Below, in pieces: positions 26,826 to 60,217 of a DNA stretch of 64,000 nt. The translations under genes were made by a program, and so were the position numbers. The notes under the pieces were generated by a model. It was not told the DNA's origin, ran no database searches, and saw only the letters and a program-made list of their open reading frames with translations. Numbering within the stretch: position 1 is the first letter of the stretch; every line of letters begins with the position of its first letter. This DNA is from Blastocatellia bacterium (GTDB lineage: Bacteria > Acidobacteriota > Blastocatellia > UBA7656): contig DATNBZ010000020.1 of assembly GCA_035607285.1 (NCBI GenBank), positions 4,505 through 68,504 of the forward strand, in the 5' to 3' direction.

Positions 26826-26918
26826 CATGTATGGGCGGCCCTCCGTGGCCGCCCCTCAGTGGTGCCGAAGAGAGTTCGACTTCGACTGAGGGGCGGCCAC
26901 GGAGGGCCGCCCATACAT
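26826..26918. repeat. Palindromic intergenic element, family 1 (CATGTATGGGCGGCCCTCCGTGGCCGCCCCTC ... GAGGGGCGGCCACGGAGGGCCGCCCATACATG)
   Basis: Near-perfect 32-bp inverted arms; copies at 32757, 42047, 55212 and 60048. Confidence 0.75.
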
Positions 26919-26946
26919 GCACTAGAGAACCAAAAGGAGAAGACAG

Positions 26947-27582
26947 ATGAAACACAAAGGATTGAAATTAGCGATTGCGATGTGTGCAATGCTCTTTTGC
27001 GTAGCGGCGGAGCTACAGGCGCAAGACGCTCCAAAGAAACCTCAACCCAAGTACTTCGTTTTCGGCAGCGACTCGCCCGAGCGCGGCACCACGCGTGTCG
27101 GCTACTGGAGCAGCGAAAAGAACATGGGCGCCGGACAACTCGCGATCGACTACGGCCGTCCGGTTTGGAAGAAGGATTACGAGGATACGGCGAAGTTCGA
27201 CGCGATGACTAAGGGCAAAGTCTATCGGCTCGGGAGTAATTTCTGGACTACGCTTGATACGGATATGCCGCTGGTGATCGCGGGGAAGACTATTCCGGCA
27301 GGCTCGTGGTACCTGGGCTTGCATCGATCCACAGACGGAGCCACCTGGAGCCTGGTGTTCATCGATCCGGCCAAGGCTCGTGCGGCGCACGTTGATGCTT
27401 CCGAGATCGAACGCGCTCCGATCGCTTTCAAGGCGCCGATGACCGCTGACCCGGGCGCCGAGATGAAAGAGAAGCTTACGATTGATCTGGTATTCAAAAA
27501 AGGTGACTTTCAGAACGTGACGCTCAAGATCGGGTGGGGAAAGATTCAATTGAGCGCCCCGGTTCAAGTTCCGATGTCGTGA
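26947..27582 (+). CDS. DUF2911-like secreted protein
   Basis: Signal peptide; 'AIDYGRPVWKK...VYRLGSNFWTTLDTDMPLVIAGKTIPAGSWYLGL' resembles the DUF2911 core. Confidence 0.6.
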   Translation: MKHKGLKLAIAMCAMLFCVAAELQAQDAPKKPQPKYFVFGSDSPERGTTRVGYWSSEKNMGAGQLAIDYGRPVWKKDYEDTAKFDAMTKGKVYRLGSNFWTTLDTDMPLVIAGKTIPAGSWYLGLHRSTDGATWSLVFIDPAKARAAHVDASEIERAPIAFKAPMTADPGAEMKEKLTIDLVFKKGDFQNVTLKIGWGKIQLSAPVQVPMS

Positions 27583-27583
27583 G

Positions 27584-28822
27584 CTAATACTCAGTCATGC
27601 TCGTATTAACGAGCCGATAGGTGAAGAAACCGCTTTGCGAGCTTTGCGGTACTTTGCGAGCTTTGCGTTCAACGTATCTCTCTTTCTCGAGCGGATTCCT
27701 TGCGCAAAGCTCGCAAAGGACCGCAAAGCTCGCTGCGTCGGGTGGTTTCTTTCGAGTGCGTGCGCTCAGCGCTTCTTTCCAGAGCGCGGGATAATCCGTG
27801 AACCCGCCGTCTATCCCGTAGCCTAGATATAGCTGAATGTCCGCGATGATGTTTGCTCGGACCGTCGAGCCGTTCGGTTGCTTTTCATCCAATGGACGAC
27901 GCGCGTTCGCGCTAGTCGAACCGCGAAACGTGTATGGGTGAATCACCAACCCGGCTTTGTGAAACGTCGCGACATCGTCGGCACTCTTGAGCAGGCTCTT
28001 ACTCGGGCCGGCTCCTTGAGCGTAAGAAGCGATCTCCTCGGCTAGCTTCGGTGTGACGATCGCGGTGTCCTTCTCGCGTCCGTGTGTTTCCATCGGCAAG
28101 AGCTGAACGCGTGGATAGCCCGACGCCAACTCGCGCATTCGAAGCAACGCTTCCTTGTAAAACGACTGAATGAAAATGCGATTGTGCTGAGAAGGACGGT
28201 CGAAGCCATGCGCTTTGAGCACAGCCGCAAGCTTCTCGGCAGTATCGAAGCCAAGCGATTTGTAAAACGCGAAGTGTTTCAACTCGATGTACAACCCTGC
28301 GCGATTGCCTACGAACCTGATTGTCTCTTCCATCGTCGGCACGCGTTGTCCGACATAAGCCGGATTAGCAGCAAACGGATTTGCTCGATTGAACCACGAG
28401 CCCGCGTCGAGACGTTTGATCTCGGCGAGCGTGAAGTCGACGGTGTACCAGCCAGGTTTCGGTTTGCCTGTTTCTTCCGGATCGCGAAGCGTCGTTCGAT
28501 CGGGAAATACCTCGGCCGCGTTCGTCGTTCGAGCGAGGTCGGGATCGTGAAGGCAGATCAGCACGCCGTCTTTTGTGACCTGCAAGTCCTGCTCGACGAA
28601 ATCCGCGCCTTGCTCCATAGCGAGCTTGTATCCGGCTAGCGTGTGTTCAGGCGCGTATCCCGAAGCGCCTCGATGCGCGACACACAACGGCTTGTGCGAA
28701 GAGCGAGCCTGCCGCGTCGTTCCTCGAAGCGTAGCCGGAACGCCGATCGACATAGACATAGCAACGACAAAAATAGAAAGCCGGCTTATGCGGCGTATCG
28801 CGCTTTGAAGATTGGTGTTCAC
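27584..28822 (-). CDS. Glycerophosphodiester phosphodiesterase (GDPD) family protein, secreted
   Basis: 'CVAHRGASGYAPEHTLAGYKLAMEQGADFVEQDLQVTKDGVLICLHD' GDPD catalytic signature; probable GTG start giving signal peptide 'MNTNLQSAIRRISRLSIFVVAMSMS'; the 3' end (27584-27750) runs through a family-2 repeat. Confidence 0.8.
   Translation of the reverse strand: MNTNLQSAIRRISRLSIFVVAMSMSIGVPATLRGTTRQARSSHKPLCVAHRGASGYAPEHTLAGYKLAMEQGADFVEQDLQVTKDGVLICLHDPDLARTTNAAEVFPDRTTLRDPEETGKPKPGWYTVDFTLAEIKRLDAGSWFNRANPFAANPAYVGQRVPTMEETIRFVGNRAGLYIELKHFAFYKSLGFDTAEKLAAVLKAHGFDRPSQHNRIFIQSFYKEALLRMRELASGYPRVQLLPMETHGREKDTAIVTPKLAEEIASYAQGAGPSKSLLKSADDVATFHKAGLVIHPYTFRGSTSANARRPLDEKQPNGSTVRANIIADIQLYLGYGIDGGFTDYPALWKEALSARTRKKPPDAASFAVLCELCARNPLEKERYVERKARKVPQSSQSGFFTYRLVNTSMTEY
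27631..27734. repeat. Palindromic element, family 2, embedded in the 3' end of the GDPD ORF
   Basis: 'ccgctttgcgagctttgcggtactttgcgagctttgcgttcaacg' ... 'cttgcgcaaagctcgcaaaggaccgcaaagctcgc'. Confidence 0.7.
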
Positions 28823-28924
28823 GTCAGGAGATTTGGTCTTGTTATTCACGCTCAGAATATACAAACGAACTTGCCATAAGCGAAAGACTCTGATTCGATA
28901 ACGCCTGTCAAACTGGAGGACGCT

Positions 28925-30112
28925 ATGCACAGCTTCAAACTCAACCTGATTGCACCTGTTGTTCTAATGGGTCTCGCTTTCACTTCATTGTTGGCCGGCG
29001 CGCGAGTCGAGGCCGTCGCCGTAGACAACGGACTCGCCAGAACGCCGCCGATGGGTTGGAACAGTTGGAACAAATTCGGCTGCAACGTTAGCGAGCAGCT
29101 CATCAAAGAAATTGCCGACGCGATGGTTTCAAGTGGAATGAAAAAGGCCGGCTACCAATACGTCAACATCGACGATTGCTGGCAGGTTAGCCGGGATGCT
29201 TCCGGGAAAATCGTTGGCGATCCAGCCAGGTTTCCCAATGGAATCAAAGCGCTCGCGGATTATGTTCATTCAAAGGGCTTGAAGCTGGGAATCTACACCG
29301 ACGCCGGCACGATGACCTGCGAGAAGCGCCCCGGTAGTCTCGATCACGAAGCACAGGACGCGAAGACTTATGCCGAATGGGGAGTCGATTACGTAAAGAT
29401 CGATTGGTGTCACACTGAAGGTCTCGATCCACAAAAGCAGTACGCGAAGTTTCGCGATGCGCTTTTGGTATGCGGGCGGCCGATCGTGTTCAGCATCTGC
29501 AACTGGGGACGAAACCAACCGTGGACGTGGGGGCCGGCAACCGGGAATCTCTGGCGCACCACCGGCGACATCCAGGACAAGTGGGCCAGTGTGCTAAAGA
29601 TTCTCGACAATCCGAGCCAGCAACACGCCGACGCCGCCGGACCGGGAGCGTGGAATGATCCAGACATGCTCGAAGTCGGGAACGGCAAGATGAGTGATGT
29701 TGAATACCGTTCACATTTCAGCCTGTGGGCGATTATGGCGGCGCCGTTGATCGCCGGCAACGATCTTCGAACGATGTCGCAAGCGACGAAAGACATCCTG
29801 ATGAACGCAGAGGTGATCGCCGTCGATCAGGATGCGGCGGGCAAGCAGGGAACCAGGGTTCATGCCGAGGGCGGCCTGGAAGTTTGGGCGAAACCGCTCA
29901 AGCAAAAAGGCGCTGCCGCCGTCGCCCTCTTCAACAGGAATGACGCGGCTGCGGATATCACTTGCAAGTGGAGCGACGTTGGATTGGGCGCCCGCAAAGC
30001 AAAGGTGCGAGACCTGTGGGCCCACGCCGATCGAGGAGCATTCGCCGGCAGCTTCAAGGCTAATGTTTCTGCGCACGGCGTGGTTATGCTGAAAATCACC
30101 GGCGCAAGGTAA
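28925..30112 (+). CDS. GH27-family alpha-galactosidase (melibiase), secreted
   Basis: 'GLARTPPMGWNSWNKFGCNVSEQL', 'YVNIDDCWQ', 'LKLGIYTDAGTMTC' GH27 signatures. Confidence 0.9.
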   Translation: MHSFKLNLIAPVVLMGLAFTSLLAGARVEAVAVDNGLARTPPMGWNSWNKFGCNVSEQLIKEIADAMVSSGMKKAGYQYVNIDDCWQVSRDASGKIVGDPARFPNGIKALADYVHSKGLKLGIYTDAGTMTCEKRPGSLDHEAQDAKTYAEWGVDYVKIDWCHTEGLDPQKQYAKFRDALLVCGRPIVFSICNWGRNQPWTWGPATGNLWRTTGDIQDKWASVLKILDNPSQQHADAAGPGAWNDPDMLEVGNGKMSDVEYRSHFSLWAIMAAPLIAGNDLRTMSQATKDILMNAEVIAVDQDAAGKQGTRVHAEGGLEVWAKPLKQKGAAAVALFNRNDAAADITCKWSDVGLGARKAKVRDLWAHADRGAFAGSFKANVSAHGVVMLKITGAR

Positions 30113-30124
30113 CGCACGAGATCA

Positions 30125-30245
30125 ACCGCTGATCTTCGCTGACTGCGTAACGCTGATCCACGCAGATCAGCGGTGTTCAGCGATTCGAAAGTCAGCGAGG
30201 ATCAGCGTTATGCAGTCAGCGAAGATCAGCGCTTGATCCCCCTTC
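30125..30245. repeat. Cluster of GATCAGCG/CGCTGATC direct and inverted repeats
   Basis: 'caaccgctgatcttcgctgactgcgtaacgctgatccacgcagatcagcggtg...gaggatcagcgttatgcagtcagcgaagatcagcgcttgatc'. Confidence 0.45.
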
Positions 30246-30268
30246 CCAGATCGAAATCGGAGAACAAA

Positions 30269-32080
30269 GTGAGAGAATCGATCGAGCGCCCCGTCAGAGT
30301 CAGCATCACGATTCTAGCCGCGGCATTCACCATCGCGTCACCGCGCTCCTTCGCGCAGGAGCGCAGGAATCTCGCTTACGAACAGGCGGCGCCCACAATT
30401 CCAGCCCGCCTCACTGAACATTCGAAAAAGATGGAGCAGCGAGTCTACAAGATCGCCGACAACGTCTACTCGGCGGTCGGCTTCGCGCTGGCTAATTCGA
30501 TTATGATTGTCGGGCGTGACGGAATAATCATCGTCGACACCACCGAATCCGTTGACTCAGCCAAAGCCGTCCTTGCCGAGTTCAGAAAGATCACGGACAA
30601 ACCAGTCAAAGCGGTCGTCTACACTCACAACCACTCCGATCACACGATGGGCGTCAAAGCATTCGCGAGCGAAGACGATGTGAAGTCGGGCCGTGTCGTC
30701 ATCTACGCTCACGAGAGTTTGATGGACACGGTCATCAGCAACGCGAGCGTGATCGCTCCGATCCTCGGCTTGCGCTCCGCGTACAGTTTCGGAATTGCGC
30801 TCGAACGAGGACCCGAAGGCTCAGTCAACGAAGGCATCGGTCCGAAGCTGATCATCGGTCAACGAAGCTTCATCGCTCCAAACAAGACATTCAAGGACTC
30901 GCTCGACGTCGAAGTCGCGGGCGTAAAGTTGCGCCTTCAGCACGCGCCAAGCGAAACCGACGATGAGATTGTAGTTTGGCTTCCCGATAACAAAGTCCTG
31001 CTCACCGCCGAGGTGATTCAAGGTGAGTGCTTTCCGAACCTGCACACGCTTAGAGGAACGAAGTATCGCGACCCGGTCAACTGGTTCAAGAGTATCGACA
31101 AGCTGCGGAGCTTCGGCGCCGAGCATATGGCGCCCTCGCACGGCCGGCCTGTTTCAGGAAAACAAAACATAGAGGCGCTGCTGACTTCATATCGCGACGC
31201 GATCCAGTACGTGCACGACCAGACGATTCGAAACATGAACAAAGGCCTGACGCCGGATGAGTTGGTCGAAGCCGTCTCGAAGCTGCCGCCCCATCTTGCG
31301 AATCATCCGTGGCTCGGCGAGTTCTATGGGACGGTCAAACATTCGGTGCGTGAGATCTACTTCGGATATCTCGGCTGGTTCGAAGGCGACCCGACTTTCC
31401 TTGATCCGCTTCCGCGCGGCGAACGCGCGGCCCGCTATGTCGAGCAGATGGGCGGGCGGGCCCGCGTCCTGGAATCGGCTCTGGGAGCCTATGACAAGGC
31501 GGACTATCAATGGGCGGCTGAGTTGGTTACTTACTTGATTCGTGTCAACAAAGACGATGCGGAAGCGCGAACTCTGAAGGCCCGGGCGTTGAGGCAGCTC
31601 GCTTACAAGACTGAAAACACGAATTGGCGCGACTGGTACATTTCGTCCGCGCGAGAGCTCGACAAGAAGTTGAATACTATGGCGACGCTGGCGTCGATGA
31701 CCTCTCTTGCCGCGCCGGACATTGTGAAACAGCTTCCGCTGAGCAAGTTCTTCGAGGCGATGACGGTGAGGCTCGATCCGGTTAAGAGCGCCGATGCGCA
31801 CCTGATCGTTGGATTCCGAATCACCGACGCAGGTCGAGGGTATGCGCTCGAAATAAGAAGAGGCATCGCACAGCTTCACGAGACATTGCCGGCACAACGG
31901 GATGTTACTCTCAGCCTGACGCTCGGCGAACTTCAGCGAATTATCCTGCATCAGACAAGCTTCACGGATTCGCTTAGGAGTGGAGAGACGAAAGTGGAAG
32001 GAAGCCGCGCGGAGCTTGAACGCTTCTTCGGCTTCTTCGACGCGCCGGCAACCGAGGCTCCCGCGCTCACCGCGCGTTGA
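30269..32080 (+). CDS. Alkyl/aryl-sulfatase (MBL-fold, SdsA1/Bds1-type), secreted
   Basis: 'VVYTHNHSDHTMG' metallo-beta-lactamase motif, C-terminal dimerisation and SCP2-like regions; start taken at GTG 30269 after the GGAGAA RBS (the ORF-track N-terminus is repeat-derived). Confidence 0.8.
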   Translation: MRESIERPVRVSITILAAAFTIASPRSFAQERRNLAYEQAAPTIPARLTEHSKKMEQRVYKIADNVYSAVGFALANSIMIVGRDGIIIVDTTESVDSAKAVLAEFRKITDKPVKAVVYTHNHSDHTMGVKAFASEDDVKSGRVVIYAHESLMDTVISNASVIAPILGLRSAYSFGIALERGPEGSVNEGIGPKLIIGQRSFIAPNKTFKDSLDVEVAGVKLRLQHAPSETDDEIVVWLPDNKVLLTAEVIQGECFPNLHTLRGTKYRDPVNWFKSIDKLRSFGAEHMAPSHGRPVSGKQNIEALLTSYRDAIQYVHDQTIRNMNKGLTPDELVEAVSKLPPHLANHPWLGEFYGTVKHSVREIYFGYLGWFEGDPTFLDPLPRGERAARYVEQMGGRARVLESALGAYDKADYQWAAELVTYLIRVNKDDAEARTLKARALRQLAYKTENTNWRDWYISSARELDKKLNTMATLASMTSLAAPDIVKQLPLSKFFEAMTVRLDPVKSADAHLIVGFRITDAGRGYALEIRRGIAQLHETLPAQRDVTLSLTLGELQRIILHQTSFTDSLRSGETKVEGSRAELERFFGFFDAPATEAPALTAR

Positions 32081-32092
32081 GATGATGATCAT

Positions 32093-32716
32093 ATGTCGTC
32101 AAGAACGACGAGTCGCAGGTCTTTTGTGAGTGTGGCGGCGAGTGTCCTTGCGGCGCCGTTTATCGGCCTGGCCGGCAATGTGTCATCAGTGTCAGGAACG
32201 GGAAAGCCAACAAGAACGGGAAAGCCAAATCGTAAACCACTCGTGCTGCCGCTTGTCGATCCGAGCATCATCGTCACGAAGAGCAAACGCATCCTGCGAT
32301 TGTATTCCGGCGGAAAGCTGGTAAGGGAATACCGCGCGGGCCTGGGTTCGAGCCCGGTTGAAGACAAAATAAAAGCGGGCGACCGGCGCACGCCCGAAGG
32401 CGAGTTCTACATTTGCCGGAAGAACGCTCAGAGCAAGTTCTATCTATCCCTCGAGCTCAGCTATCCGAACAGGCGGCACGCCGATCGCGGGCTTCGCGAC
32501 GGACTGATAAGCCGCTCTCAACACAATCAAATCCTCAGTGCATTGGAACACAAACGAGTCCCGCTTCAGAACACCCACCTTGGAGGAGAGATCTTCATTC
32601 ACGGCAACGGATCGAGCAGCGATTGGACCTGGGGCTGCGTCGCGCTGGAAGACAAAGACATTCGGGAGTTGTTTGACGCGATCCCTGTCGGGACGCCGGT
32701 TACCATCGAACATTGA
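32093..32716 (+). CDS. L,D-transpeptidase (YkuD) family protein with TAT signal
   Basis: 'RRSFVSVAASVLAAPF' twin-arginine signal; catalytic 'IHGNGSSSDWTWGCVAL'. Confidence 0.8.
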   Translation: MSSRTTSRRSFVSVAASVLAAPFIGLAGNVSSVSGTGKPTRTGKPNRKPLVLPLVDPSIIVTKSKRILRLYSGGKLVREYRAGLGSSPVEDKIKAGDRRTPEGEFYICRKNAQSKFYLSLELSYPNRRHADRGLRDGLISRSQHNQILSALEHKRVPLQNTHLGGEIFIHGNGSSSDWTWGCVALEDKDIRELFDAIPVGTPVTIEH

Positions 32717-32756
32717 TCGCGCATTCACCGTCGCTGTAGTTGTGAATAGAAGTAGC

Positions 32757-32911
32757 GACATGTAGGGGCGGCTCTCCGTGGCCGCCCCTTAGTGGGTTGA
32801 CGGTGTGTCTCCGGTCGCGACTGAGGGGCGGCCACGGAGGGCCGCCCCTACATGTGGTAAAAGGGTCGCCCCTACATGTGGTAAAAGGGTCGCTAAAAGG
32901 GCCGCCCCTGC
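32757..32911. repeat. Palindromic element, family 1, with extra GGTAAAAGGGTCGCCCCTACATGT direct repeats
   Basis: 'acatgtaggggcggctctccgtggccgcccct' ... 'gaggggcggccacggagggccgcccctacatg' followed by two 'tggtaaaagggtcgc' units. Confidence 0.7.
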
Positions 32912-33918
32912 TAGCGGAGAAGGAATCCATCCTTCAACGGATCATTGGGGTTTGAGAGAAACTCGTGACGCCCGGTTATGTAAGCACTGCCTTCGACTTC
33001 AGGAACAACCGCGGAGTATTCGCCGAAGCGCGTTTCCCGAACAACCCGGCCGGTGAAGCGGGTGCCGATCAGGCTCTCGATCACGAACGGTTCGCCAATC
33101 GCCAATCTTCCTTTCGCATGTTCGAGCGCCACTCGCCCGCTGACGCCGGTGCCGGTGGGCGAGCGATCCACCTCACCTTCGGCGAAGATGCAGACGTTGC
33201 GGCTGTTGGCGCCGGTCGTCAGGGGATCGCTGTCGATTATCGTTCCGTAGAGAAAGCCGAGGTCGTCTTCGAAAGGATGTTTGATATCGAGCGAGTTCAT
33301 GACTGCGCGCTTGACTGACATTCCAACTTCAATCGACTTGCGAAAGTGTTCAGGAACGATTCGCACGCCCAAGTCTTCGGCTCTGCAGTAGGCGTAGAAC
33401 GCTCCGCCGAATGCTACATCGTAGCGCACGCTGCCAATGCCGGGAACGTCGACTGACTGATCGAGCTTATATGCAAACGACGGCACGTTTTCAAAAGCCA
33501 CACTACGAACGTGTTTACCGTCAAAGTTCGCGCGCGCGGTCACGCGACCCGCTGGCGTATCGAGCCTGATCACCTCGCGAGGCGAGAGCATGTTCGTTTC
33601 AAGCAGCACTGTTACGAGGGCTATCACTCCGTGGCCGCACATCGTGCTGTAGCCTTCGTTGTGTATGAAGAGCACTCCCAGATCACCGTCTGGTGTGACC
33701 GCGTCCGTGAGTAAGCACCCATACATATCGGCGTGACCGCGCGGCTCGAACATCAGCGCGCGGCGTACGTGATCGAGGTTCTCGCGTGCGTAACGTCTTT
33801 TTGCAAGGATGGTGTCGCCGGGAATCGGCGGAAGCCCGCCGGTGATTACTCGCAACGGTTCACCGGCGGCGTGCGCGTCGATGGTTGTTATGCGAGTCCA
33901 ATCAGATGGTGAGGTCAT
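32911..33918 (-). CDS. Proline racemase family protein; Cys/Thr catalytic pair suggests trans-3-hydroxy-L-proline dehydratase
   Basis: First catalytic motif 'STMCGHG' (Cys), second motif 'DRSPTGTGVSG' (Thr where racemases/epimerases have Cys). Confidence 0.85.
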   Translation of the reverse strand: MTSPSDWTRITTIDAHAAGEPLRVITGGLPPIPGDTILAKRRYARENLDHVRRALMFEPRGHADMYGCLLTDAVTPDGDLGVLFIHNEGYSTMCGHGVIALVTVLLETNMLSPREVIRLDTPAGRVTARANFDGKHVRSVAFENVPSFAYKLDQSVDVPGIGSVRYDVAFGGAFYAYCRAEDLGVRIVPEHFRKSIEVGMSVKRAVMNSLDIKHPFEDDLGFLYGTIIDSDPLTTGANSRNVCIFAEGEVDRSPTGTGVSGRVALEHAKGRLAIGEPFVIESLIGTRFTGRVVRETRFGEYSAVVPEVEGSAYITGRHEFLSNPNDPLKDGFLLR

Positions 33919-33930
33919 TAAGTGTTTCTT

Positions 33931-34030
33931 CTTTGCGAGCTTTGCGGTCCTTTGCGAGCTTTGCGTTTAACGAATTTGAAAGAAAAATACGTTAGCGCAA
34001 AGCTCGCAAAGGACCGCAAAGCCCGCAAGG
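33931..34030. repeat. Palindromic intergenic element, family 2
   Basis: 'ctttgcgagctttgcggtcctttgcgagctttgcgtttaacg' ... 'cgttagcgcaaagctcgcaaaggaccgcaaagcccgcaagg'. Confidence 0.7.
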
Positions 34031-34032
34031 AT

Positions 34033-35904
34033 TTATTGGCCGGGGGTCGGGCCGTAGAACTTCCAATTCGACACGAACTCGCGCGTTAACTTTTGCTTTG
34101 TCAGACTCGCGCGAACCATCTCGATCGGAATGCGATTCTCCTTCAACACCGCGTCGTGAAAGGCACGATTGGTCATCTTGCCCGAGTCGACCAGGTCTCG
34201 ATGAAGCGCCCGTAGCTGCAAGCCCCCCAGCAAGTATGAGCATTGATAAAGCGGCCCGTAGCCGCCGCCGAACGAGCGCCGCACTTCGGCGGTTGCGTTG
34301 TCCAACTCGTGGCCGACTTTCTTGACCAACAGGTCTATGCACTCCTGAGGCGTCATCTTCTCGAGATGAAAACTAAGCGAGAAAATGATTCGAGCCGAGC
34401 GGTGCATTCGCCAGAACAGCATGCCTATTCGGTTCTCGGGAGACTTTGCGAAGTTCATGTCCCACAACAGCATCTCCCAGTAAAGCGCGCCGCCTTCGGT
34501 CCAGAAAGGCGTGCCGAATATCTGTCGATAGGGCCGATATCGCCCGGCCATGAAGCCCTGAAGGTGATGACCTGGAATTAGTTCATGGAAAACGGTCGCG
34601 CGCGAGAAGTGAATGTTGTTTCCGCGCATGCTCATCATCTTGGCTTCGTGACCCATCGTGTTTGTAGGATAAGACACCTGGATCGTCTCGCCCCCGAGAA
34701 AGAACGGGCTGACGAGCTGGCGTTCGGGCGTCATCATCTCCATTCGCCAGGTGTCGCGGGCAAGTTGCGGAATCGTGACCAGGTCGTGATCGTCCATGAA
34801 CCTGATCGCCTCGATCGCGAGCTCGCGAATCAAGTCGGGTTGCTTGCCAGGTTCGACGTATAAGGTCTTCACGTACTCCAGCGCCTTCATCCAATCGTCG
34901 CCGTAGCCGAGTTCGCGCGACGCCTTCTTCATTTCGTTCTCGCACCAGTCATATTCCTTGTTGGCGATTGCGACGAGCTCCTCGGGTGTGTAAGGAATCA
35001 TCTCGTAAGCGAGCTCGCTCATCAGCGCTTCGCGGCCGATGGGATCGCCGATGATCTCGGTCGTGTCACCGGGCTTAAGGCCGAGAACTTTTTCGCGCAG
35101 GAGTGCAATGTACTTTTCCAGCGCGGTGTCGACCGACTTATAGGGCTCGCCGACCCACCACGTGAACATCGGGTCATAGCCGTTGTAAAAGCCGAACCAG
35201 TTTTTGAGCGTCGCGCGTTGAACGTTGATCGAAGCGATTGCGCGGTTCGCGATCGGTCTCTTGACCTTGATTGCATCAGGCTTTGTGTCGGGCTTTGCGT
35301 CGGGCTTGGCGTCGGGCTTGGCGTCGGGCTTGAGCCCGGCTTCGACCGCCTTGCTTGTCGCGTCGATTTCTTTGGCCATCCTGGTTAGCAGCGCGGCGGT
35401 CTTTGGTGAATCGATCGCCTGCATGCTCCGGCGCGCGTCTTCGAGCTCCGCGATTGTTCGAGCGAACGGCGCGAGCGGCGCGACCTCGTCGAAGGCTTGT
35501 TTTTGAATGTCGAGCTGGCGAAGCTCGTGATCCAGATGGTTCTTGAACAGAATATAGTCGACGCGTCCGTCCTGGCTCATCGAATCGAAGTTGACCTTCG
35601 TAAGAGTCGCAAGCCACTCGCCGTAGAACTGTTTCATGCGCGCCTGCCTCGACGCCGATGCTTCTACGCCGAAGAACCGAAACAGGCTCCCGCGATCGGC
35701 GGCGTATCGTTCGATCAAGGGGCGCAGCTCGCTGACTGGAACATCGCCGTTGGTGAGAGCGGGATCGGAGTTCGATCTCGCTTCGGTCTTGCGCACGGCG
35801 TTGATATTGGTCTGAGCTGCAGAGACTCCGACTGGTCCGCACAACGATTCCAGTGAGAGCATCGCGATCGATAGATATATGCTGATGGAAACTCTGTGCT
35901 TCAT
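34033..35904 (-). CDS. DUF885-family protein (putative metallopeptidase-like), secreted, with (KPDA)n linker
   Basis: 'VFHELIPGHHLQGF' DUF885 HExxPGHH motif; the 15-bp tandem repeat at 35276-35340 encodes KPDAKPDAKPDAKPDTKPDA. Confidence 0.8.
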   Translation of the reverse strand: MKHRVSISIYLSIAMLSLESLCGPVGVSAAQTNINAVRKTEARSNSDPALTNGDVPVSELRPLIERYAADRGSLFRFFGVEASASRQARMKQFYGEWLATLTKVNFDSMSQDGRVDYILFKNHLDHELRQLDIQKQAFDEVAPLAPFARTIAELEDARRSMQAIDSPKTAALLTRMAKEIDATSKAVEAGLKPDAKPDAKPDAKPDTKPDAIKVKRPIANRAIASINVQRATLKNWFGFYNGYDPMFTWWVGEPYKSVDTALEKYIALLREKVLGLKPGDTTEIIGDPIGREALMSELAYEMIPYTPEELVAIANKEYDWCENEMKKASRELGYGDDWMKALEYVKTLYVEPGKQPDLIRELAIEAIRFMDDHDLVTIPQLARDTWRMEMMTPERQLVSPFFLGGETIQVSYPTNTMGHEAKMMSMRGNNIHFSRATVFHELIPGHHLQGFMAGRYRPYRQIFGTPFWTEGGALYWEMLLWDMNFAKSPENRIGMLFWRMHRSARIIFSLSFHLEKMTPQECIDLLVKKVGHELDNATAEVRRSFGGGYGPLYQCSYLLGGLQLRALHRDLVDSGKMTNRAFHDAVLKENRIPIEMVRASLTKQKLTREFVSNWKFYGPTPGQ

Positions 35905-36125
35905 TTAGTCTCCTCGAACTAAGGTAACGGTGAGCGAGTAATGCTCGACGCCGAAAACAAGAGTTACCTGATCGGTTCTTATCTCACACCTCGCACCGCG
36001 CTGCAAACGTTGCGTGATCTGTCGAAGCACATGCCGGGGCGCTGGGCGACGCGAGCGCAAGCCGGTGATTCTCAAGAACCCGCACAAGTGCTAGAATGTG
36101 CTCACGACTTGAAACGGAGAGTCCA

Positions 36126-36386
36126 ATGCAAAGTCTGGTGGTTGAGATTCTAAACCCCGATACAGTTCAAGCGATCGCCGATGCCGCCAGGCTTCAGGGG
36201 ACCACGCCCGAAGCATGCGCGGTGGAGCTTCTCGAGACTGCGCTCCTTGCCAGACGACCGTTCGAAGAGATCGTGGAACCTATTGCGCGCGACTTCGATG
36301 AAGGCGGGTTGACGGAGGCAGAGCTCGACGAGCTGATTAAGCGGGCGCGACGCGCTGTTCGCGATGAGAGCGGTTCGAAGAAATAG
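36126..36386 (+). CDS. Putative antitoxin (ribbon-helix-helix-like) of a PIN toxin-antitoxin pair
   Basis: 86 aa, GGAGA RBS; stop 2 nt before the PIN gene start. Confidence 0.5.
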   Translation: MQSLVVEILNPDTVQAIADAARLQGTTPEACAVELLETALLARRPFEEIVEPIARDFDEGGLTEAELDELIKRARRAVRDESGSKK

Positions 36387-36388
36387 CC

Positions 36389-36868
36389 ATGCCCGAACAC
36401 ACCCCGCGTGTGGTCTTTGATTGCAATGTCTTTGTTCAGGGAATAGCCAACCGTCGCAGCGCGGCTCGAGCGGCGATGCGCTTATTCTTCGATGGCGAGA
36501 TCTCGCTATTTGTCAGCGAGGCGATTCTGCGCGAAGTCCGCGACGTACTAAATCGTGAAGAGCTTCGGCGCAAGCTGCCAGCCATTAAGGATCGCCTCGT
36601 CAACGCTCTCCTCCTAAAACTTGAAGGAAGAGCCATCCTCACTACCAACGTTCCCGAAGAGCACCAGTACGACCGCGATCCAAATGATGAGAAGTATCTA
36701 AATCTCGCGATCGTCTCTAGCGCTTCCTATCTGGTAAGCAAGGACGATGACCTCTTAGACTTAATAAGCACCAACACGGATGTTGCGCTCCGGTTCCGCA
36801 ACCCGTTTCTACAGATTCTTACCGCAAGCGACTTCATTACGAAGATGAAGTCGCAGAGCACCAGCTGA
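36389..36868 (+). CDS. PIN-domain protein (putative toxin, TIGR00305-like)
   Basis: 'RVVFDCNVFVQGI' N-terminal PIN signature with acidic residues. Confidence 0.75.
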   Translation: MPEHTPRVVFDCNVFVQGIANRRSAARAAMRLFFDGEISLFVSEAILREVRDVLNREELRRKLPAIKDRLVNALLLKLEGRAILTTNVPEEHQYDRDPNDEKYLNLAIVSSASYLVSKDDDLLDLISTNTDVALRFRNPFLQILTASDFITKMKSQSTS

Positions 36869-36898
36869 TTTCGTACCAGACAGGCGCGCCAAAGTACA

Positions 36899-38275: not shown

Positions 38276-38378
38276 CGCCCGTCTCCTTCTCGACGCAGGC
38301 TCTTGCGGTCTGCGCGATTCTGATTGCAATGTTTCAAACCCAATCTGGTTCGAAGGCCCAACTTTTCGCAAGCCGTTC

Positions 38379-38515
38379 GCTCACATTCGCGTTTTTTCCT
38401 CTGCGTCCTCGGCGTCCTCTGCGGTTGATTCCGAGCCACTGAGCAGGCAAAACCGCGGAGGACGCCGGGGCCGCAGAGGACTGCTTCCTGACAACACGCT
38501 AATACGCCACTGCCC
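38379..38515. repeat. Palindromic element, family 3, long (about 135 bp) copy
   Basis: Near-identical over its length to 55925-56058 ('gctcacattcgcgttt...cctctgcggttgattccgagc.actgagcagg.aaaaccgcggaggacgccgggg.cgcagaggactgctt.ct..caacacgctaata'). Confidence 0.7.
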
Positions 38516-38647
38516 AACTTTCGGGTTGGTTGCTCGTTGAGTGGAAAGCCTACTATTATCCTCCTGCGCGGTCGGTTTGCAATCAGAAATTGCGCAGGTT
38601 GCAATCAGAAATTGCATGGCTCACACACTTTTGTCGGGAGAGATCGA

Positions 38648-42045: not shown

Positions 42046-42046
42046 A

Positions 42047-42135
42047 CTTGTAAGGGCGTCCCTCCGTGGGCGCCCCTCTTTGCGGCTCACTTCGATCACC
42101 GATGAGGGGCGCCCGCGGAGGGACGCCCTTACATG
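42047..42135. repeat. Palindromic element, family 1 variant (GGGCGTCCCTCCGTGGGCGCCCCTC arms)
   Basis: 'cttgtaagggcgtccctccgtgggcgcccctc' ... 'gaggggcgcccgcggagggacgcccttacatg'; its terminal ATG is the ORF start of the next gene. Confidence 0.65.
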
Positions 42136-50111: not shown

Positions 50112-50195
50112 CAGTCCTCAGCGTCCTCGGCGTCCTCTGCGGTTTATCTTGGATTGGTGCGGAGAATCAACCGCAGAGGACGCGGAGGACACGCA
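50112..50195. repeat. Palindromic intergenic element, family 3
   Basis: 'cagtcctcagcgtcctcggcgtcctctgcggtt' ... 'aaccgcagaggacgcggaggacacgcag'. Confidence 0.65.
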
Positions 50196-53024: not shown

Positions 53025-55121
53025 CTACAGTCCAAACGCTCTTACCAGCAGTGCTGCCATCTGGCCGCGCGTGACATAGTCTCCTGGGCAAAAATTCCCT
53101 CCGCCACATCCTCCGGTAATCCCCAGGGCTCCAAGCCTGTCGATGAAGGCGTAGTACGGATTGGACCGCGGCACGTCTAAGAACATCCGAGACGCGGGAA
53201 CGGGAGGGCTGTACTCTCCCAGCGCCCGGATGATAAGTGCAGCTACCTGTTCGCGGGTGACAGGATCACCGGGGCAGTAGAGCGGTTGACCCTGGTTATT
53301 GGCGCCGCAGCCGCTGGTGATGCCAAATGCAGCCAGCTTGTCGATGAAGCTATAGAAAGGATCAGGCTGCCCGTTTACGGTTGGCGGCACGTCATCAAAT
53401 CGTTGCATAGCTGTAGGCAGGGGGCTGAACTCTCCAAGCGCTTTAATCACAAGCGCTGCCATCTGCTGGCGAGTGACCGGTTCATCGGGGCAGTAACGCC
53501 CATTAGCGCAGCCTACAGTCACGCCTCGAGCGGCCAGTTTACCTATCTCCGTGTAAAAAAAATGAGTCTTGGGAACATCAAGAAAGTCTACACTCTGGAC
53601 AACGGTGAACGTCTGACCTGCGACTGTGATAACGCCGCTACGATTAACTGCGCCGGGATTTGCGCGTACCAAAAAGGTGACCGTCCCGTTACCGGCGCCA
53701 CTTCCCGACAGAATGGTAATCCAAGCTACGTCGGCTGAGGCGGTCCAGCTACAGTTCCTCGCTTGTGTCACATTGAAGCTGCCCATTCCTTCGTTGGCAC
53801 TGAAGGATTGACTCAATGGAGCCATCGAGAGGACGCACTCCGACGGCGGCGTGTAGTTGTAGTATATGGATCCCCTGGCTGCGGGTGTCCCGCCTTCGCA
53901 ATGTTGGATGAAATCCGCCGCGAAGCTCACCACTTGCACTTCGGAGGATGAATAATCAAAGGCGGCATCAAGGACGGTAAACTCACCAATCAGCGTGTTG
54001 CATCCTCGGCCATTTCCCGAAAGGTCCAGGCCCGGGTGTCCGGCAGCTTCGAAGGGATAGCGTTGAGCGTTGGTGTAATAGCCGGGCACCAAAGCTACAT
54101 TCAGATTTCTGGTTGTGATGTGGAGACTCCACCAATTAGCAAAGGCAGCGTCGTTGTAGGCCAGGCGAAAGTAATTACCCGCACCGTTGGTGCTTCCCCA
54201 AGTGCGGAAAAATCCATCTCTTGGCGTGAACACATACTCATGAGACCCCACGATAAAGTCGCCCGGTTCCCCTTGCAAGGATAGCCTGGTGATTGAAGGA
54301 ATCGGTGACACAACCTTCAACGTGGCTGCGCTTGAAACTCCATGGTAACTGGCAAGTATGACGACCGACGAAGGCGATTTTATCCTGGTGGTGCTTATCG
54401 GGAAGTCTGCAGACTTCGATCCCTGTGGCACCGGGACGCTGGAAGGCACAGTCGCCAGCGCGACATTGCCGCTGGCGAGGTGTACGAGCGCGCCGCCCGG
54501 CGGCGCGGGATCGGTAAGAACCACGATGCCCTTGACGGTCTCGCCCCCATTTACGGTCGGCGGATTAGCTCTCAGAGAACTGGTGGGAGTGTAATTGTAG
54601 TAGATAACACCCGCCAGTGAGATTGGACCACCTTCACAATGTTGCTCGAACTGCGCTGCGAAGCTGATGAGTTGTGGAGTTCCTGATGAATAATCAAAAG
54701 TTGCTTGCAGGACGGTGAAGCTGCCTGTCACCGTGTTGCACCCTCGCCCATCTCCAGTAACCTCGAGACCTGGATGACCAGCCGTTGCAAACGGCGCGCG
54801 CATCGCCTTATCGTAAAAGCCAGGCTTTAACTCCAGATGTAGCTGGGTTGTGGTAAATGTCAAATTCCACCGCTGACCGGGACCAGTGAAGCCAATCGTA
54901 ACGTAATCGACCAAACCATCGTGATCGTGATCGAGTCCTCCCGCTGAGAAACTGCCATTCGCCGGCGTGAATGAATATGTTTGCCCACCGCCTATGTAAT
55001 CCCCCGGATTGCTCACCATGTAAAGTTGCGTAGCGCCGGCGGCCGGTGTGCTCTGCGCGAAAGCTGATGGCGCGAAAGCAGCAAGAAAGAGAAGTATCAG
55101 TATCGTGTGAATGCGGTTCAT
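53025..55121 (-). CDS. Secreted surface protein: two duplicated about 240-aa beta modules, BACON/Ig-like domain, three C-terminal SLH domains
   Basis: Signal peptide 'MNRIHTILILLFLAAFAPSAFA'; internal duplication ('...HCEGG...IYYNYTP' twice); 'NCSWTASADVAWITILSGSGAGNGTVTFLVRANPG' BACON-like; three 'F.DVP...Y..I..L...GIT.GC.....CP...VTR.Q.AAL' SLH repeats; real start at M62 of the ORF-track ORF. Confidence 0.75.
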   Translation of the reverse strand: MNRIHTILILLFLAAFAPSAFAQSTPAAGATQLYMVSNPGDYIGGGQTYSFTPANGSFSAGGLDHDHDGLVDYVTIGFTGPGQRWNLTFTTTQLHLELKPGFYDKAMRAPFATAGHPGLEVTGDGRGCNTVTGSFTVLQATFDYSSGTPQLISFAAQFEQHCEGGPISLAGVIYYNYTPTSSLRANPPTVNGGETVKGIVVLTDPAPPGGALVHLASGNVALATVPSSVPVPQGSKSADFPISTTRIKSPSSVVILASYHGVSSAATLKVVSPIPSITRLSLQGEPGDFIVGSHEYVFTPRDGFFRTWGSTNGAGNYFRLAYNDAAFANWWSLHITTRNLNVALVPGYYTNAQRYPFEAAGHPGLDLSGNGRGCNTLIGEFTVLDAAFDYSSSEVQVVSFAADFIQHCEGGTPAARGSIYYNYTPPSECVLSMAPLSQSFSANEGMGSFNVTQARNCSWTASADVAWITILSGSGAGNGTVTFLVRANPGAVNRSGVITVAGQTFTVVQSVDFLDVPKTHFFYTEIGKLAARGVTVGCANGRYCPDEPVTRQQMAALVIKALGEFSPLPTAMQRFDDVPPTVNGQPDPFYSFIDKLAAFGITSGCGANNQGQPLYCPGDPVTREQVAALIIRALGEYSPPVPASRMFLDVPRSNPYYAFIDRLGALGITGGCGGGNFCPGDYVTRGQMAALLVRAFGL

Positions 55122-55211
55122 GTGCGGACCTCTTTGAGGGGATCGACCGGAGGGCGCTGTCATTCTGGCACGTTTGCCTGGCACCGGCAAGAATAAACAA
55201 GGCGGACGGGA

Positions 55212-55316
55212 GTAACGACCTGTATGGGCGGCCCTCCGTGGCCGCCCCTCTTTACGTACGGCGCTCGTTGGACCGAAGAGGGGCGGCCAGGGAGGGCCGC
55301 CCATACAGGTCGTTAC
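55212..55316. repeat. Palindromic intergenic element, family 1
   Basis: 'gtaacgacctgtatgggcggccctccgtggccgcccctctt' ... 'aagaggggcggccagggagggccgcccatacaggtcgttac' (41-bp arms). Confidence 0.75.
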
Positions 55317-55427
55317 TACGAGACCGCCCAGAGTCGTGTCCGATTAATAGATGAGAGCCGTTGAAGAAAACCACCCAATCAATGTGAACCTGCTCGCTGC
55401 GACCTCTCAACGAACTTCATCGAAATG

Positions 55428-55924: not shown

Positions 55925-56058
55925 GCTCACATTCGCGTTTCTCCTCTGCGTCCTCTGCGTCCTCTGCGGTTGATTCCGAGCAACTGAGCAGGAAAAACCG
56001 CGGAGGACGCCGGGGACGCAGAGGACTGCTTGCTGGCAACACGCTAATATCTCACTAC
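55925..56058. repeat. Palindromic element, family 3, long copy (near-identical to 38379-38515)
   Basis: Direct comparison of both copies. Confidence 0.7.
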
Positions 56059-56072
56059 CCGGTTTTGCGTGC

Positions 56073-57146: not shown

Positions 57147-57173
57147 AGCTAGTCCCTCCAATTGCGCGGCGGT

Positions 57174-57292
57174 GTCTTAATTTGGAGTGCGGCGGCAAGG
57201 TACTCCGCGACGCCGCTTTCCTTCCCAATCGATTCAATCACAAGCCAAAGCGGCGTCGCGGAGTACCTTGCCGCCGCACTCCAAATTAAGAC
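57174..57292. repeat. 47-bp near-perfect inverted repeat with 25-nt loop
   Basis: 'gtcttaatttggagtgcggcggcaaggtactccgcgacgccgctttc' ... 'caaagcggcgtcgcggagtaccttgccgccgcactccaaattaagac' (46/47 match). Confidence 0.7.
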
Positions 57293-57309
57293 ATCGCCAA
57301 CTGCACCTG

Positions 57310-58303: not shown

Positions 58304-58320
58304 GCTTGTCTCTCCTGGTC

Positions 58321-58405
58321 CCTGGGAGCGCAGGCATCCCTGCCTGCAAGGTTCCAATGGCATAGGCTTGCAAGGCGTGCAGGCAGGGATGCCTGCGCTC
58401 CCAGG
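58321..58405 (-). terminator. GC-rich 28-bp perfect inverted repeat downstream of the MocR-like gene (terminator-like hairpin, no U-tract)
   Basis: 'cctgggagcgcaggcatccctgcctgca' ... 'tgcaggcagggatgcctgcgctcccagg'. Confidence 0.4.
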
Positions 58406-58411
58406 GGCGTT

Positions 58412-59944
58412 TCACACCAGTGCTCGCAACCCGTCGGCTCGCATGGTTCCGCGCTGTTTCTTGAGCTTCAACAACTGCGTCTTCATTATTGCGGCAAGCC
58501 GCTTCACTCCTTCGTCAATAGCCTGGGGACCCGCCATGGTGAATGACAGCCTCATTACATTTTCCTGCGGCGAGCTTGCGAAGAAGTGGTCGCCGCTGAT
58601 GAAGGTCACGCCGCTCTCCGCGGCTTGATGCAGAAGCTGTCTGCTGCCGAGCGCGCCGGGCAAACGCACCCAAACCGACATCCCGCCTTCGGGTCTGCTC
58701 CAGCTTGCTTCGTCCGGGAAGTAGCGATCCAGCGCCTCGAGCATTGCATCGCGCCGCAGCCGGTAGGCCTTCTTGACGCGCTTGATGTGTTTAGCAAGTA
58801 AGCCGCGTTTGGCGAATTCGTGAATCGCAGCTTGCGCAAGCAGGCTCGCGTGCAAATCGCAGCGCTGCTTTACGCGATTGAGATGTTCTATGACGATCTT
58901 GGGAGCAGCTATCCATCCTACTCGCAAGCCGGGAAACCCAACCTTCGAAAAGCTGCTGATGTAGATAACCAGGCCGTGCTCATCGAGCGCCTTGAGCGGC
59001 GGGACTTCAGGGCCGTCGTATCTAAGCTCGCGATAAATGTCATCTTCGATTATCGGAACGCGATACCTGGCCGCGACGCCGATCAGTTGCCGGCGCGCGG
59101 CCGAGTCCATCGTCACGCCGGTCGGATTCTGAAAGCTCGGCACGACGTAGATCAGTTTCGCTCGGCGCTGAGAGAGAACGTCTTCCAGGACATTCAGGTC
59201 CATTCCATTCGCGCCGACCGGAACGCCGATGTACTTGGAACCGCCGCCGCAGAACACACTGAGCGCGCCGGGATAAGTCGGGTTCTCGAGCACCACTTCT
59301 TCACCGGGCTCGACCAGTATCTGCCGGATCAGATCGAGCGACTGCTGGCAGCCGTTGGTAATGAGCACTTCATCGGCCGACACCTTCGCGCCTGAAAGCG
59401 CGAGTTGCGAAGCGATATATTGCTGAAGCGGCGCGTATCCGCTGGTCGCTCCGAGCTGAAGCAAAACGCGACCTTGTTTTCGCAGGACCCGATCGACCGA
59501 GCGTCGAAAATCATCGAGCGGGAAGAGATCGGCCGAAGGAAGCGCGAGCGCCAAAGAAATGCCGTCTCGCCGCTGTTCCAGGCTGCTCATTTCTGCCAGC
59601 CAATTGTCACGTGTCTGAAGCGTCAATAGCGCGTCCCATAGCATTGGTGAGGATACGGGTGATCCAGCATCCTGTGTTTTGAACGAAGCGCGCGGCATCG
59701 GCGCCGGCAACCGGCTTACGTAAGTGCCGCTGCCGACGCGAGAGCTTATCAAGCCATCCGCGGCAAGTTCGGCATACGCCGTTGTAACCGTGTTGCGATT
59801 GACTCCAAGCGTCCTGGCGAGTTCGCGATTAGCGGGCAACCGGTCACCGACCTTCAGCGCGCCGTCAGTCATTCTTCGGCACACCTCGCTGACGATTTGA
59901 GCGTAAAGCGGGACGTGGCTGTCACGGTTGAGTTCCAAAAGCAT
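58412..59944 (-). CDS. MocR/GabR-type transcriptional regulator (GntR HTH + PLP-dependent aminotransferase domain)
   Basis: 'PLYAQIVSEV...LPANRELARTLGVNRNTVTTAYAEL' HTH, aminotransferase class I/II fold; start at M83 (the ORF-track N-terminal 82 codons translate the family-1 repeat). Confidence 0.85.
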   Translation of the reverse strand: MLLELNRDSHVPLYAQIVSEVCRRMTDGALKVGDRLPANRELARTLGVNRNTVTTAYAELAADGLISSRVGSGTYVSRLPAPMPRASFKTQDAGSPVSSPMLWDALLTLQTRDNWLAEMSSLEQRRDGISLALALPSADLFPLDDFRRSVDRVLRKQGRVLLQLGATSGYAPLQQYIASQLALSGAKVSADEVLITNGCQQSLDLIRQILVEPGEEVVLENPTYPGALSVFCGGGSKYIGVPVGANGMDLNVLEDVLSQRRAKLIYVVPSFQNPTGVTMDSAARRQLIGVAARYRVPIIEDDIYRELRYDGPEVPPLKALDEHGLVIYISSFSKVGFPGLRVGWIAAPKIVIEHLNRVKQRCDLHASLLAQAAIHEFAKRGLLAKHIKRVKKAYRLRRDAMLEALDRYFPDEASWSRPEGGMSVWVRLPGALGSRQLLHQAAESGVTFISGDHFFASSPQENVMRLSFTMAGPQAIDEGVKRLAAIMKTQLLKLKKQRGTMRADGLRALV

Positions 59945-60047
59945 GGTTGGCCCTCGAACTTTCAAGTGGGCTATCTGACCGAACCATTCTACAGTGGAAA
60001 TGAGTGACGTAAAGAGCCAATTGTGGGCCAATTGTCTGATGCCAATT

Positions 60048-60217
60048 CTGATAACGACATGTAGGGTCCCGATAACGACATGTAGGGTCCCGATAACGAC
60101 ATGTAGCGTCCCGATAACGACATGTAGGGGCGGCCCTCCGTGGCCGCCCCTCCGTCGCGACGTCTCGGGACGCGAAAGAGGGGCGGCCACAGAGGGCCGC
60201 CCCTACATGTCGTTATC
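60048..60217. repeat. Palindromic element, family 1, preceded by 3.5 tandem copies of a 21-mer GATAACGACATGTAGGGTCCC
   Basis: Direct reading; the 21-mer is the 5' arm of the palindrome amplified. Confidence 0.75.

Follow-up and report, generated by a model that had tools for sequence, protein, structure and literature searches.

Five palindromes in a Blastocatellia contig as probable REPINs, doublets of a GTAG-type REP family of Acidobacteriota

What are the five near-perfect palindromes that lie between the genes of a 64-kb stretch of Blastocatellia DNA, and what could have put them there? The stretch, 64,000 nucleotides of contig DATNBZ010000020.1 (assembly GCA_035607285.1; hereafter the window), had been predicted from its letters to carry at least five copies of an inverted repeat behaving like a mobile element of the REP (repetitive extragenic palindrome) or MITE (miniature inverted-repeat transposable element) type. 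Matching of the repeat core together with an inverted-repeat search indeed found five copies, and we conclude that they are very probably REPINs, that is, head-to-head doublets of a GTAG-type REP family belonging to Acidobacteriota (Blastocatellia / Pyrinomonadaceae). The elements are non-coding and 93-107 bp long. They are given below as placed by the inverted-repeat search, with the tetranucleotide tag that precedes each hairpin and the predicted fold as single-stranded DNA (ssDNA).

26826-26919: REPIN copy 1; arms 26826-26860 and 26885-26919, 35 nt, 100% complementary; REP cores 26833-26855 (+) and 26890-26912 (-); both arms tagged GTAT; fold -55.3 kcal/mol, z -14.8
32758-32855: REPIN copy 2; arms 32758-32793 and 32820-32855, 36 nt, 94% complementary; GTAG tags; fold -49.4 kcal/mol, z -12.6
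42045-42137: REPIN copy 3; arms 42045-42078 and 42104-42137, 34 nt, 94% complementary; GTAA tags, T6-G17 stem variant; fold -45.5 kcal/mol, z -12.9
55211-55317: REPIN copy 4; arms 55211-55252 and 55276-55317, 42 nt, 98% complementary; GTAT tags; long arms with outer extension AGTAACGACC; fold -59.2 kcal/mol, z -14.2
60113-60217: REPIN copy 5; arms 60113-60159 and 60171-60217, 47 nt, 94% complementary; GTAG tags; arms with outer extension GATAACGACA; fold -60.4 kcal/mol, z -15.2

The last copy had been placed at 60048; its palindrome stands, starting from 60113, and 60048 is the start of a 21-mer array described further below. The 23-mer core GGGCGGCCCTCCGTGGCCGCCCC matches the window ten times at up to three mismatches, always as one member of five +/- pairs, and has no match in 100 dinucleotide-preserving shuffles of the window. 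A profile hidden Markov model (HMM) trained solely on arms from other genomes returned precisely the ten known arms (E 3e-9 to 2e-6), its remaining matches being half-REP remnants adjoining copy 2 and an insignificant one at 33618-33638 (E 0.028). Because a model built from foreign arms recovers only these ten arms and the copy 2 remnants, the number of copies within the 64-kb window is exactly five. All lie in its second half, at 26.8-60.2 kb, with none in 1-26 kb.

The part of each arm that is held in common is short and well delimited. Aligned on the core, 206 arms from 108 sequences (the window and 107 genome stretches) are conserved from -4 to +23 and fall to background level outside. The unit defined in this way is 28 nt long and consists of T, GTA(G/T/A/C), a G+C stem of 9-10 bp and a 6-nt loop, CTCCGT; a further T usually follows, giving a C|T junction. 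In the arms of the window, GGGCGGCC pairs with GGCCGCCC across this loop, and TGTA(G/T/A) precedes. Base frequencies at -4 to 0 are T 0.86, G 0.88, T 0.87, A 0.86 and G 0.71, and the core beyond is nearly invariant. In a set of 398 unique arms the tag is GTAN in 322 (GTAG 243, GTAC 36, GTAT 27, GTAA 16) and the loop is CTCCGT in 325. Where the stem does vary, double changes keep the pairing: position pair 4-19 is CG in 297 arms and TA in 76, and pair 6-17 is GC in 289, TG in 77, CG in 9 and AT in 9, these stem-pair and tag counts being of sequences and not of independent events. Copy 3, earlier noted at 42047 as a "G/C-swapped" variant, belongs to the T6-G17 sub-family, in which this one stem pair is changed from G6-C17 to T6-G17 in both arms.

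REPs are defined by a 5' GT[AG]G followed by a short G+C palindrome, and two of them head-to-head with a short spacer make up the unit of a BIME (bacterial interspersed mosaic element), or REPIN (PMC3733652; PMC6006769). The unit described here is likewise a short palindromic stem-loop with a 5' GTAG tag, extragenic, dispersed and present in many copies. Each of the five copies consists of inverted REPs around a short spacer and folds into one long hairpin. As ssDNA a single REP is predicted to fold at -13.9 kcal/mol (z -5.5), and the doublets at -45.5 to -60.4 kcal/mol (z -12.6 to -15.2). Among the matches listed, 72 of 83 neighbouring arm pairs are head-to-head, with 7 tail-to-tail and 4 in tandem, and the spacing between cores is mostly 12-67 nt.

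How far does this family reach? Along with the original prediction came the suggestion of a genome-wide pattern search, and we scanned a species-representative genome collection with a slightly degenerate core, which returned at least 107 stretches of 8 kb, drawn from genomes other than that of the window and overlapping it in the repeats alone. The window itself had a single exact match, a 50.9-kb contig of an ENA metagenome. At least 95 of these stretches come from at least 46 Acidobacteriota assemblies (species-level, assigned by record title), which are labelled, among the matches listed, as Blastocatellia, Pyrinomonadaceae, "gp4" or Candidatus Onstottus. The core is thus not confined to the window, being present in at least 46 species-level Acidobacteriota genomes. 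Nor are the copies unrelated GC-rich hairpins, since the 28-nt unit is nearly invariant and its flanks are random. Such a unit could serve to mark Blastocatellia/Pyrinomonadaceae contigs in metagenomes. The other 12 stretches, among the matches listed, lie outside Acidobacteriota. The Actinomycetota matches that we inspected were plain G+C hairpins without GTAG and were set aside, and those in Streptomyces and Sphingomonas were left out on taxonomy. Two Chloroflexota stretches carry GTAG and a very similar hairpin, GGGCGACCCTCCGTGGTCGCCCC, with the same loop: one from an Anaerolineae metagenome-assembled genome (MAG; L064:5413-5587 and 206-260), where the GTAG hairpins occur in arrays, and one from a Chloroflexia MAG (L020:~3148-3170). 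These could represent a related REP family in another phylum, either by shared ancestry or by transfer.

If the repeats are REPs, a REP-associated tyrosine transposase (RAYT) may be expected in their company. Using E. coli RayT (from NC_000913) as tblastn query on the window and the genome stretches, we found, among the matches listed, one stretch, L054, with a matching gene:

L054, 4343-5002, - strand: RAYT open reading frame (ORF) of 219 aa with the motifs PDHLHVL and YIVLNPVKRGY

This gene is bracketed by inverted REPs of the family at 4271-4298 and 5019-5047. Its product scores 100.5 bits (cut-off 80) on the NCBIfam model NF047646, REP_Tyr_transpos (REP-associated tyrosine transposase), and 24.6 bits (cut-off 23) on Pfam PF01797. 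A profile of 30 members of its clade matches PDB 4ER8 (TnpArep) at E 1.8e-13; across these members H76, H78, Y192 and N196 are invariant and P197 nearly so. An HuH motif together with Y---NP is the signature of class 2 TnpA_REP (PMC6006769). With the HUH motif, Y---NP and the match to a curated model all present, the L054 protein is by sequence a RAYT of this class. We found 509 homologues at E<=1e-10, many of them named "REP element-mobilizing transposase RayT" by JGI and attributed to Blastocatellia.

The association between the enzyme and the repeat is close. At 80 metagenomic loci of the RAYT clade, a REP core lies within 300 nt of the gene in 78 and on both sides in 64. In the usual locus the gene is either preceded by a + REP at about 40 nt and followed by a - REP at about 50 nt, or flanked by two doublets. 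In relatives of the window's genome, therefore, the RAYT is flanked by its own REPs, which is the REPtron arrangement, and one genome, DASXSR01, holds both such a REPtron (L054) and dispersed copies (L038, L056, L106). Clade members are 215-225 aa long, and between their HUH motif (76-78) and LW/Y region (170-197) lies a conserved stretch of about 60 additional residues. Their motifs DHLH and YI(A/V)(M/L)NP, and F-N-D-H where E. coli has F-W-E-H, fit no row of the published table of subclasses 2.1-2.8 (PMC6006769), and identity to E. coli RayT is 43% over a C-terminal block of 47 aa.

How might such an enzyme act on these repeats? The substrate bound by characterized TnpA_REP enzymes is the folded single-stranded REP together with its GTAG, and the inverse REP is neither bound nor cleaved in vitro. 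Cleavage falls at C|T in E. coli and Stenotrophomonas and at C|T and C|A in Marinomonas, GTAG acts as guide, and strand transfer is performed (PMC8266576). By analogy with these enzymes, a RAYT with HUH/Y1 nuclease activity, encoded elsewhere in the genome, would recognize the folded single-stranded REP TGTAGGGGCGGCCCTCCGTGGCCGCCCCTC with its 5' GTAG and cleave at the C|T (or C|A) adjoining the hairpin. Strand transfer would then excise, copy or re-insert a REP or a whole doublet, the probable route being ssDNA at replication forks. The elements would accordingly be non-autonomous and inherited together with their transposase. All ten arms of the window end in CCCC|T, and across the family 46% of arms have CT and 25% have CA at +23/+24. 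Because the C|T at the arm ends matches the known TnpA_REP cleavage dinucleotide, we infer that RAYT-dependent cleavage and joining on ssDNA makes and moves the elements.

The stem variant bears on a different explanation, namely that the palindromes are small structured RNA genes, or sites of a host DNA-binding protein, spread by recombination and not by a transposase; the original prediction had itself raised small structured RNAs as a possible product. The T6-G17 variant pairs solely as a G-T/G-U wobble, and does so only on the GTAG strand. Di Nocera et al. take wobble pairs of this kind as a hint of RNA function (PMC3733652). Such a pair, however, is equally expected of a single-stranded DNA substrate recognized on the GTAG strand, the inverse REP being inactive in vitro (PMC8266576); the pairing thus fits a strand-specific ssDNA substrate, and an RNA role would predict the same. 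Against RNA genes, an Rfam scan of the whole window at gathering score gave no match, a scan of 26000-44000 showed no promoter-like site adjoining copies 1-3, and the doublets, being symmetric, have no defined transcription strand. We regard this explanation as extremely unlikely, and any RNA role of the elements would come in addition to the REPIN identity that we favor.

Do the elements come and go? The cleanest comparison is offered by the intergenic spacer between a MacB/FtsX permease gene and a DUF2911 gene, where copy 1 resides. In the window this spacer (26817-26946) holds a REPIN with GTAT tags. In L195, a relative at 95% amino acid identity, a REPIN with GTAG tags and an unrelated 34-nt spacer occupies the same spot (1114-1248). 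In L196 (90%; 1841-2000) and L197 (85%; 1794-2000) the same two genes flank the site, no REP of the family is present, and other palindromes stand there. Comparison of orthologous intergenic regions, which had also been suggested with the original prediction, therefore finds the MacB→DUF2911 site polymorphic, with turnover at a truly orthologous position. Of the palindromes at this site in the relatives, two are REPINs of the present family and the two others are different and unrelated to each other, and the site resembles a hot spot where palindromic elements from several families gather. Similarly, downstream of a proline-racemase gene a REPIN is found in the window (copy 2) and in L190, a 92% relative, and is absent in L191-L194 (85-87% relatives), a comparison that is confounded because gene order 3' of the gene is not kept in the latter; the DUF2911 site is cleaner. 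In L190:3596-3663 the arm tails CCCCTCAGTGG... and CCCCTCAGTCGCGA... run in the opposite order, relative to the gene, from window 32758-32855, which suggests that the L190 spacer was inverted by recombination between the arms.

Some elements can be followed from one locus to another. Copy 3 recurs, with its spacer and at about 90% identity, at L035:3077-3177 in a different species-level MAG, where flanks and neighboring genes are unrelated. The spacer in L195 resembles those of RAYT-adjacent REPINs (local scores 14-16, against a shuffle maximum of 12), and in L176 and L145 the two REPINs that flank a RAYT have spacers in common. Because spacers are shared or similar in these three settings, at least some doublets appear to spread as units, spacer included.

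The same loci bear on whether the palindromes could be classical MITEs, deletion derivatives of an insertion sequence (IS) with a DDE transposase, ending in terminal inverted repeats (TIRs) and flanked by target-site duplications. Short, non-coding elements of 93-107 bp with long inverted arms and many copies would suit this well. Inspection of the flanks, however, revealed no target-site duplication consistent across the five copies; a GRAACC-like direct repeat flanks site 1 in the window and in L195 and none of the other sites. Moreover, what is conserved is a hairpin inside the element, preceded by a 5' GTAG, and not a terminal inverted repeat, the center is not conserved as the remnant of an IS would be, and the sole transposase found beside the repeats is a Y1/HUH enzyme. 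Of the REP/MITE-type character first proposed, then, the REP part is borne out by GTAG hairpins, doublets and RAYT-flanking copies in relatives, and the MITE part finds no support, neither consistent duplications nor a DDE transposase having been found; we give it almost no credence.

All five copies are intergenic, lying 0-110 nt 3' of a stop codon between co-directional or convergent genes:

Copy 1, between MacB/FtsX permease (stop 26816) and DUF2911 (start 26947): co-directional
Copy 2, between YkuD (stop 32716) and proline-racemase family (stop 32911): convergent
Copy 3, between melibiase-like 39940-42045 and methyltransferase: co-directional
Copy 4, between GNAT (stop 55428, - strand) and SLH/BACON protein: co-directional, minus strand
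Copy 5, between 222-aa gene (stop 60235, - strand) and MocR-type GntR/aminotransferase regulator: co-directional, minus strand

Copy 3 begins on the final base of the melibiase-like stop codon and ends 59 nt 5' of the methyltransferase gene as that gene is called in L108 (window 42196). Family-wide, 28% of arms fall inside long open frames, compared with 81% of random positions. Mechanically called ORFs at 53025-55304 (-) and 58412-60190 (-) run through copies 4 and 5, and one such ORF starts at the ATG within GTATGGG of the REP. From our reading of the sequence the true starts are likely near 55123 for the SLH/BACON gene (MNRIHTILIL...) and near 59945 for the MocR-type gene (MLLELNRD...), both on the minus strand. 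Through the false ATG in the GTATGGG of some arms, the REPs described here can mislead start-codon calling in annotation.

Since all five copies lie just 3' of genes, they are probably transcribed as very stable hairpins in 3' untranslated regions. This placement raises the question of whether they are, at root, host regulatory hairpins (terminators, attenuators, insulators or mRNA-stabilizing 3' stem-loops) whose likeness to REPs is secondary; roles as terminators or insulators had been entertained in the original prediction. Their position 0-110 nt downstream of stop codons of co-directional or convergent genes and their extreme stability are what such hairpins would display, and REPs in other bacteria are reported to influence mRNA stability and termination (PMC3733652). 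Read directly, though, the sequence has no T/U tract after any of the five copies, and a terminator scan of 26000-44000 called none of copies 1-3, which lack the features of intrinsic terminators. Regulatory hairpins would also leave unexplained an invariant 28-nt GTAG-tagged sequence at unrelated loci in at least 46 species, REPs that bracket a transposase gene, and the unrelated palindromes that take its place at one intergenic site. A regulatory origin thus appears very unlikely, and a host role is compatible with the REPINs as an added function; mRNA stability or read-through may be affected as a by-product of their presence. A scan of the window for tRNA and tmRNA found no genes.

Several observations weigh against the REPIN assignment. 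The last base of the tag is degenerate in this genome, the ten arms of the window carrying GTAG in 4, GTAT in 4 and GTAA in 2, so that canonical GTAG is found in only 4 of 10. No RAYT gene was found in the 64-kb window by tblastn with E. coli RayT and the L054 RAYT, and a RAYT in the window's own genome is presumed from its presence in relatives. Finally, the spacers of copies 1, 2, 4 and 5 are not significantly similar among themselves or to the spacer of any other doublet, and among 114-120 doublets spacers are mostly dissimilar outside orthologous RAYT loci. Unrelated spacers in 4 of 5 copies are unlike simple copying from a recent master doublet; they suggest either fast change at the center of long palindromes or doublets that were re-formed.

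Among known systems, the REPINs of Pseudomonas fluorescens SBW25 and their Group 3 RAYTs (Bertels and Rainey 2011, PMC3116915; subclass 2.5, Quentin et al. 2018) come closest. As here, an inverted REP pair with a short spacer forms one long hairpin, the palindromes are short and perfect with a 5' GTAG, the elements are extragenic, the RAYT is flanked by its own REPs, and at least some doublets appear to be dispersed with their spacer (in our data copy 3 and L035). In contrast to SBW25, the present host is one of the Acidobacteriota (Blastocatellia) and not of the Gammaproteobacteria, the loop is 6 nt, 4 of the 5 spacers in the window are unrelated, and the RAYT has 215-225 aa with about 60 extra residues. 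The REP/BIME elements of E. coli and their TnpA_REP (RayT, b0228; PDB 4ER8) are similar in that GTAG hairpins occur as inverted intergenic pairs close to the 3' ends of genes, the HUH/Y1 enzymes have the catalytic C-terminal half in common, and C|T stands beside the hairpin. E. coli REPs are, however, longer and imperfect, with a bulge needed for activity (PMC8266576), whereas the stems here are perfect; BIMEs in that species combine distinct Y and Z REP types (PMC6006769), and E. coli RayT has 165 aa and is without the insertion of about 60 residues.

The family also has the main traits of the GTAG-REP super-family (Di Nocera et al. 2013, PMC3733652), namely GTAG outside the main stem, a predominance of head-to-head dimers, a stem length within its typical 6-9 bp, G-T stem pairs in sub-families, positions between unidirectional and convergent genes, and clusters beside RAYT genes. 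GTAG repeats were reported there from Proteobacteria, Cyanobacteria, Chloroflexi and the PVC group. From Acidobacteria the same survey described only RAYT-like genes flanked by long TIRs ("TIRYTs"), in Terriglobus, Koribacter, Acidobacterium and Granulicella (PMC3733652), and earlier surveys taken together record for this phylum only TIR-flanked or class 3 enzymes (PMC3733652; PMC6006769). Unlike those, the family described here is a GTAG REP in Acidobacteria, and our literature searches found no report of REPs in Blastocatellia. Members of the IS200/IS605 family (IS608, ISDra2) likewise have sub-terminal hairpins with a 5' guide tetranucleotide, recognized as ssDNA by a Y1 HUH transposase, and make no target-site duplication. 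These ISs, however, carry the transposase between their hairpins and are identical in multiple copies, whereas ours are non-coding doublets of 93-107 bp, and the enzyme here has the class 2 signature Y---NP, not Y---Q.

The elements thus represent a familiar type of bacterial repeat, seen here in a group from which it is not described in the papers searched, and the associated protein is already automatically named RayT. Our general understanding of REPs is not changed by them. Nearly all work on REP/REPIN-RAYT systems has concerned Gammaproteobacteria. A clear GTAG-REP system of soil Acidobacteria, its REP conserved in dozens of species, provides an independent lineage in which to test the idea of a long-lived, vertically inherited REPIN-RAYT partnership. 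We put forward tentatively, with more doubt than confidence, that an old partnership of this sort exists in Blastocatellia, in which the 28-nt REP stayed near-unchanged class-wide as the RAYT diverged to about 55% identity and carried an insertion of about 60 aa (a subclass outside 2.1-2.8), and in which REPINs are one of several palindromic families that replace each other at intergenic slots. In four relatives, four different palindromes occupy the MacB→DUF2911 spacer. Were this so, families replacing each other would imply a shared target such as gene-end hairpins and competition among element families, and spacers would be re-made rather than copied.

Two copies have been amplified in part. 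For copy 5, Tandem Repeats Finder (TRF) confirmed the tandem 21-mer that had been noticed in the original prediction, and for copy 2 the extra direct repeats seen there proved to be a 24-mer followed by a 12-nt repeat:

60050-60129, + strand: 21-mer array of copy 5; period 21, 3.8 copies, 96% matches, unit GATAACGACATGTAGGGTCCC (TRF)
32838-32893: 24-mer array of copy 2; period 24, 2.3 copies, 96% matches (TRF)
32882-32905: 12-nt repeat remnant following the 24-mer array

The 21-mer GATAACGACATGTAGGGTCCC is made up of outer flank, TGTAG and stem start from the left arm of copy 5. The 24-nt unit similarly comprises about 10 nt of flank, TGTAG and the 5' half of the stem, duplicated at the outer (GTAG) end of copy 2 (32838-32905), where the arm profile has weak matches at 32862-32876 and 32898-32911. 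The array junctions are CCC|T in copy 2 and not so in copy 5; a reading of the half-REP junctions as RAYT cleavage footprints was dropped, since those of copy 5 do not fit. These half-REP repeats look like slippage at a stalled hairpin, whether by replication slippage or with another origin. Tandem arrays of whole REPs occur directly beside RAYT genes, with five units of about 57 nt in L178:2066-2360, four of about 59 nt in L124:4712-4930 and three of 43 nt in L117:1-130. In L122 a short GGTGATTCAGTTTGG repeat lies between two REPs downstream of the RAYT gene.

The window contains further palindromes of other kinds. A second family, at 1406-1510 and 23357-23483, has arms of 39-47 nt with GTAC-CGGCTTTAGCCGG-GTAG-like hairpins, and the spacer 5' of the DUF2911 orthologue in L198 contains a further member (L198:1860-1990); this family, too, may be REP-like and served by a transposase of its own. 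Tandem units of CTTTGCG or GCTTTGCGA (7-9 nt) that face their reverse complements form palindromes at 12015-12083, 27637-27733, 33930-34031 and 42937-43046, all of them intergenic, one just 3' of DUF2911 and one between the DUF885 and proline-racemase genes. Arrays of TCCTCTGCG (9 nt) facing their complements lie at 38397-38480, 50123-50190 and 55942-56025, and at 44574-44687 a GTTCAGR/GAACTCT heptamer array of 11.6 copies stands opposite 2.3 copies of a 14-mer. With 52-nt arms that are 98% complementary, the inverted repeat at 57168-57298 is the longest in the window. A 92%-identical copy is present at L115:175-311, where a RAYT gene lies about 3.7 kb away on the same metagenomic contig, and the two make up one more element family that is shared. 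Two separate palindromes are found at 58320-58406 and 30120-30238.

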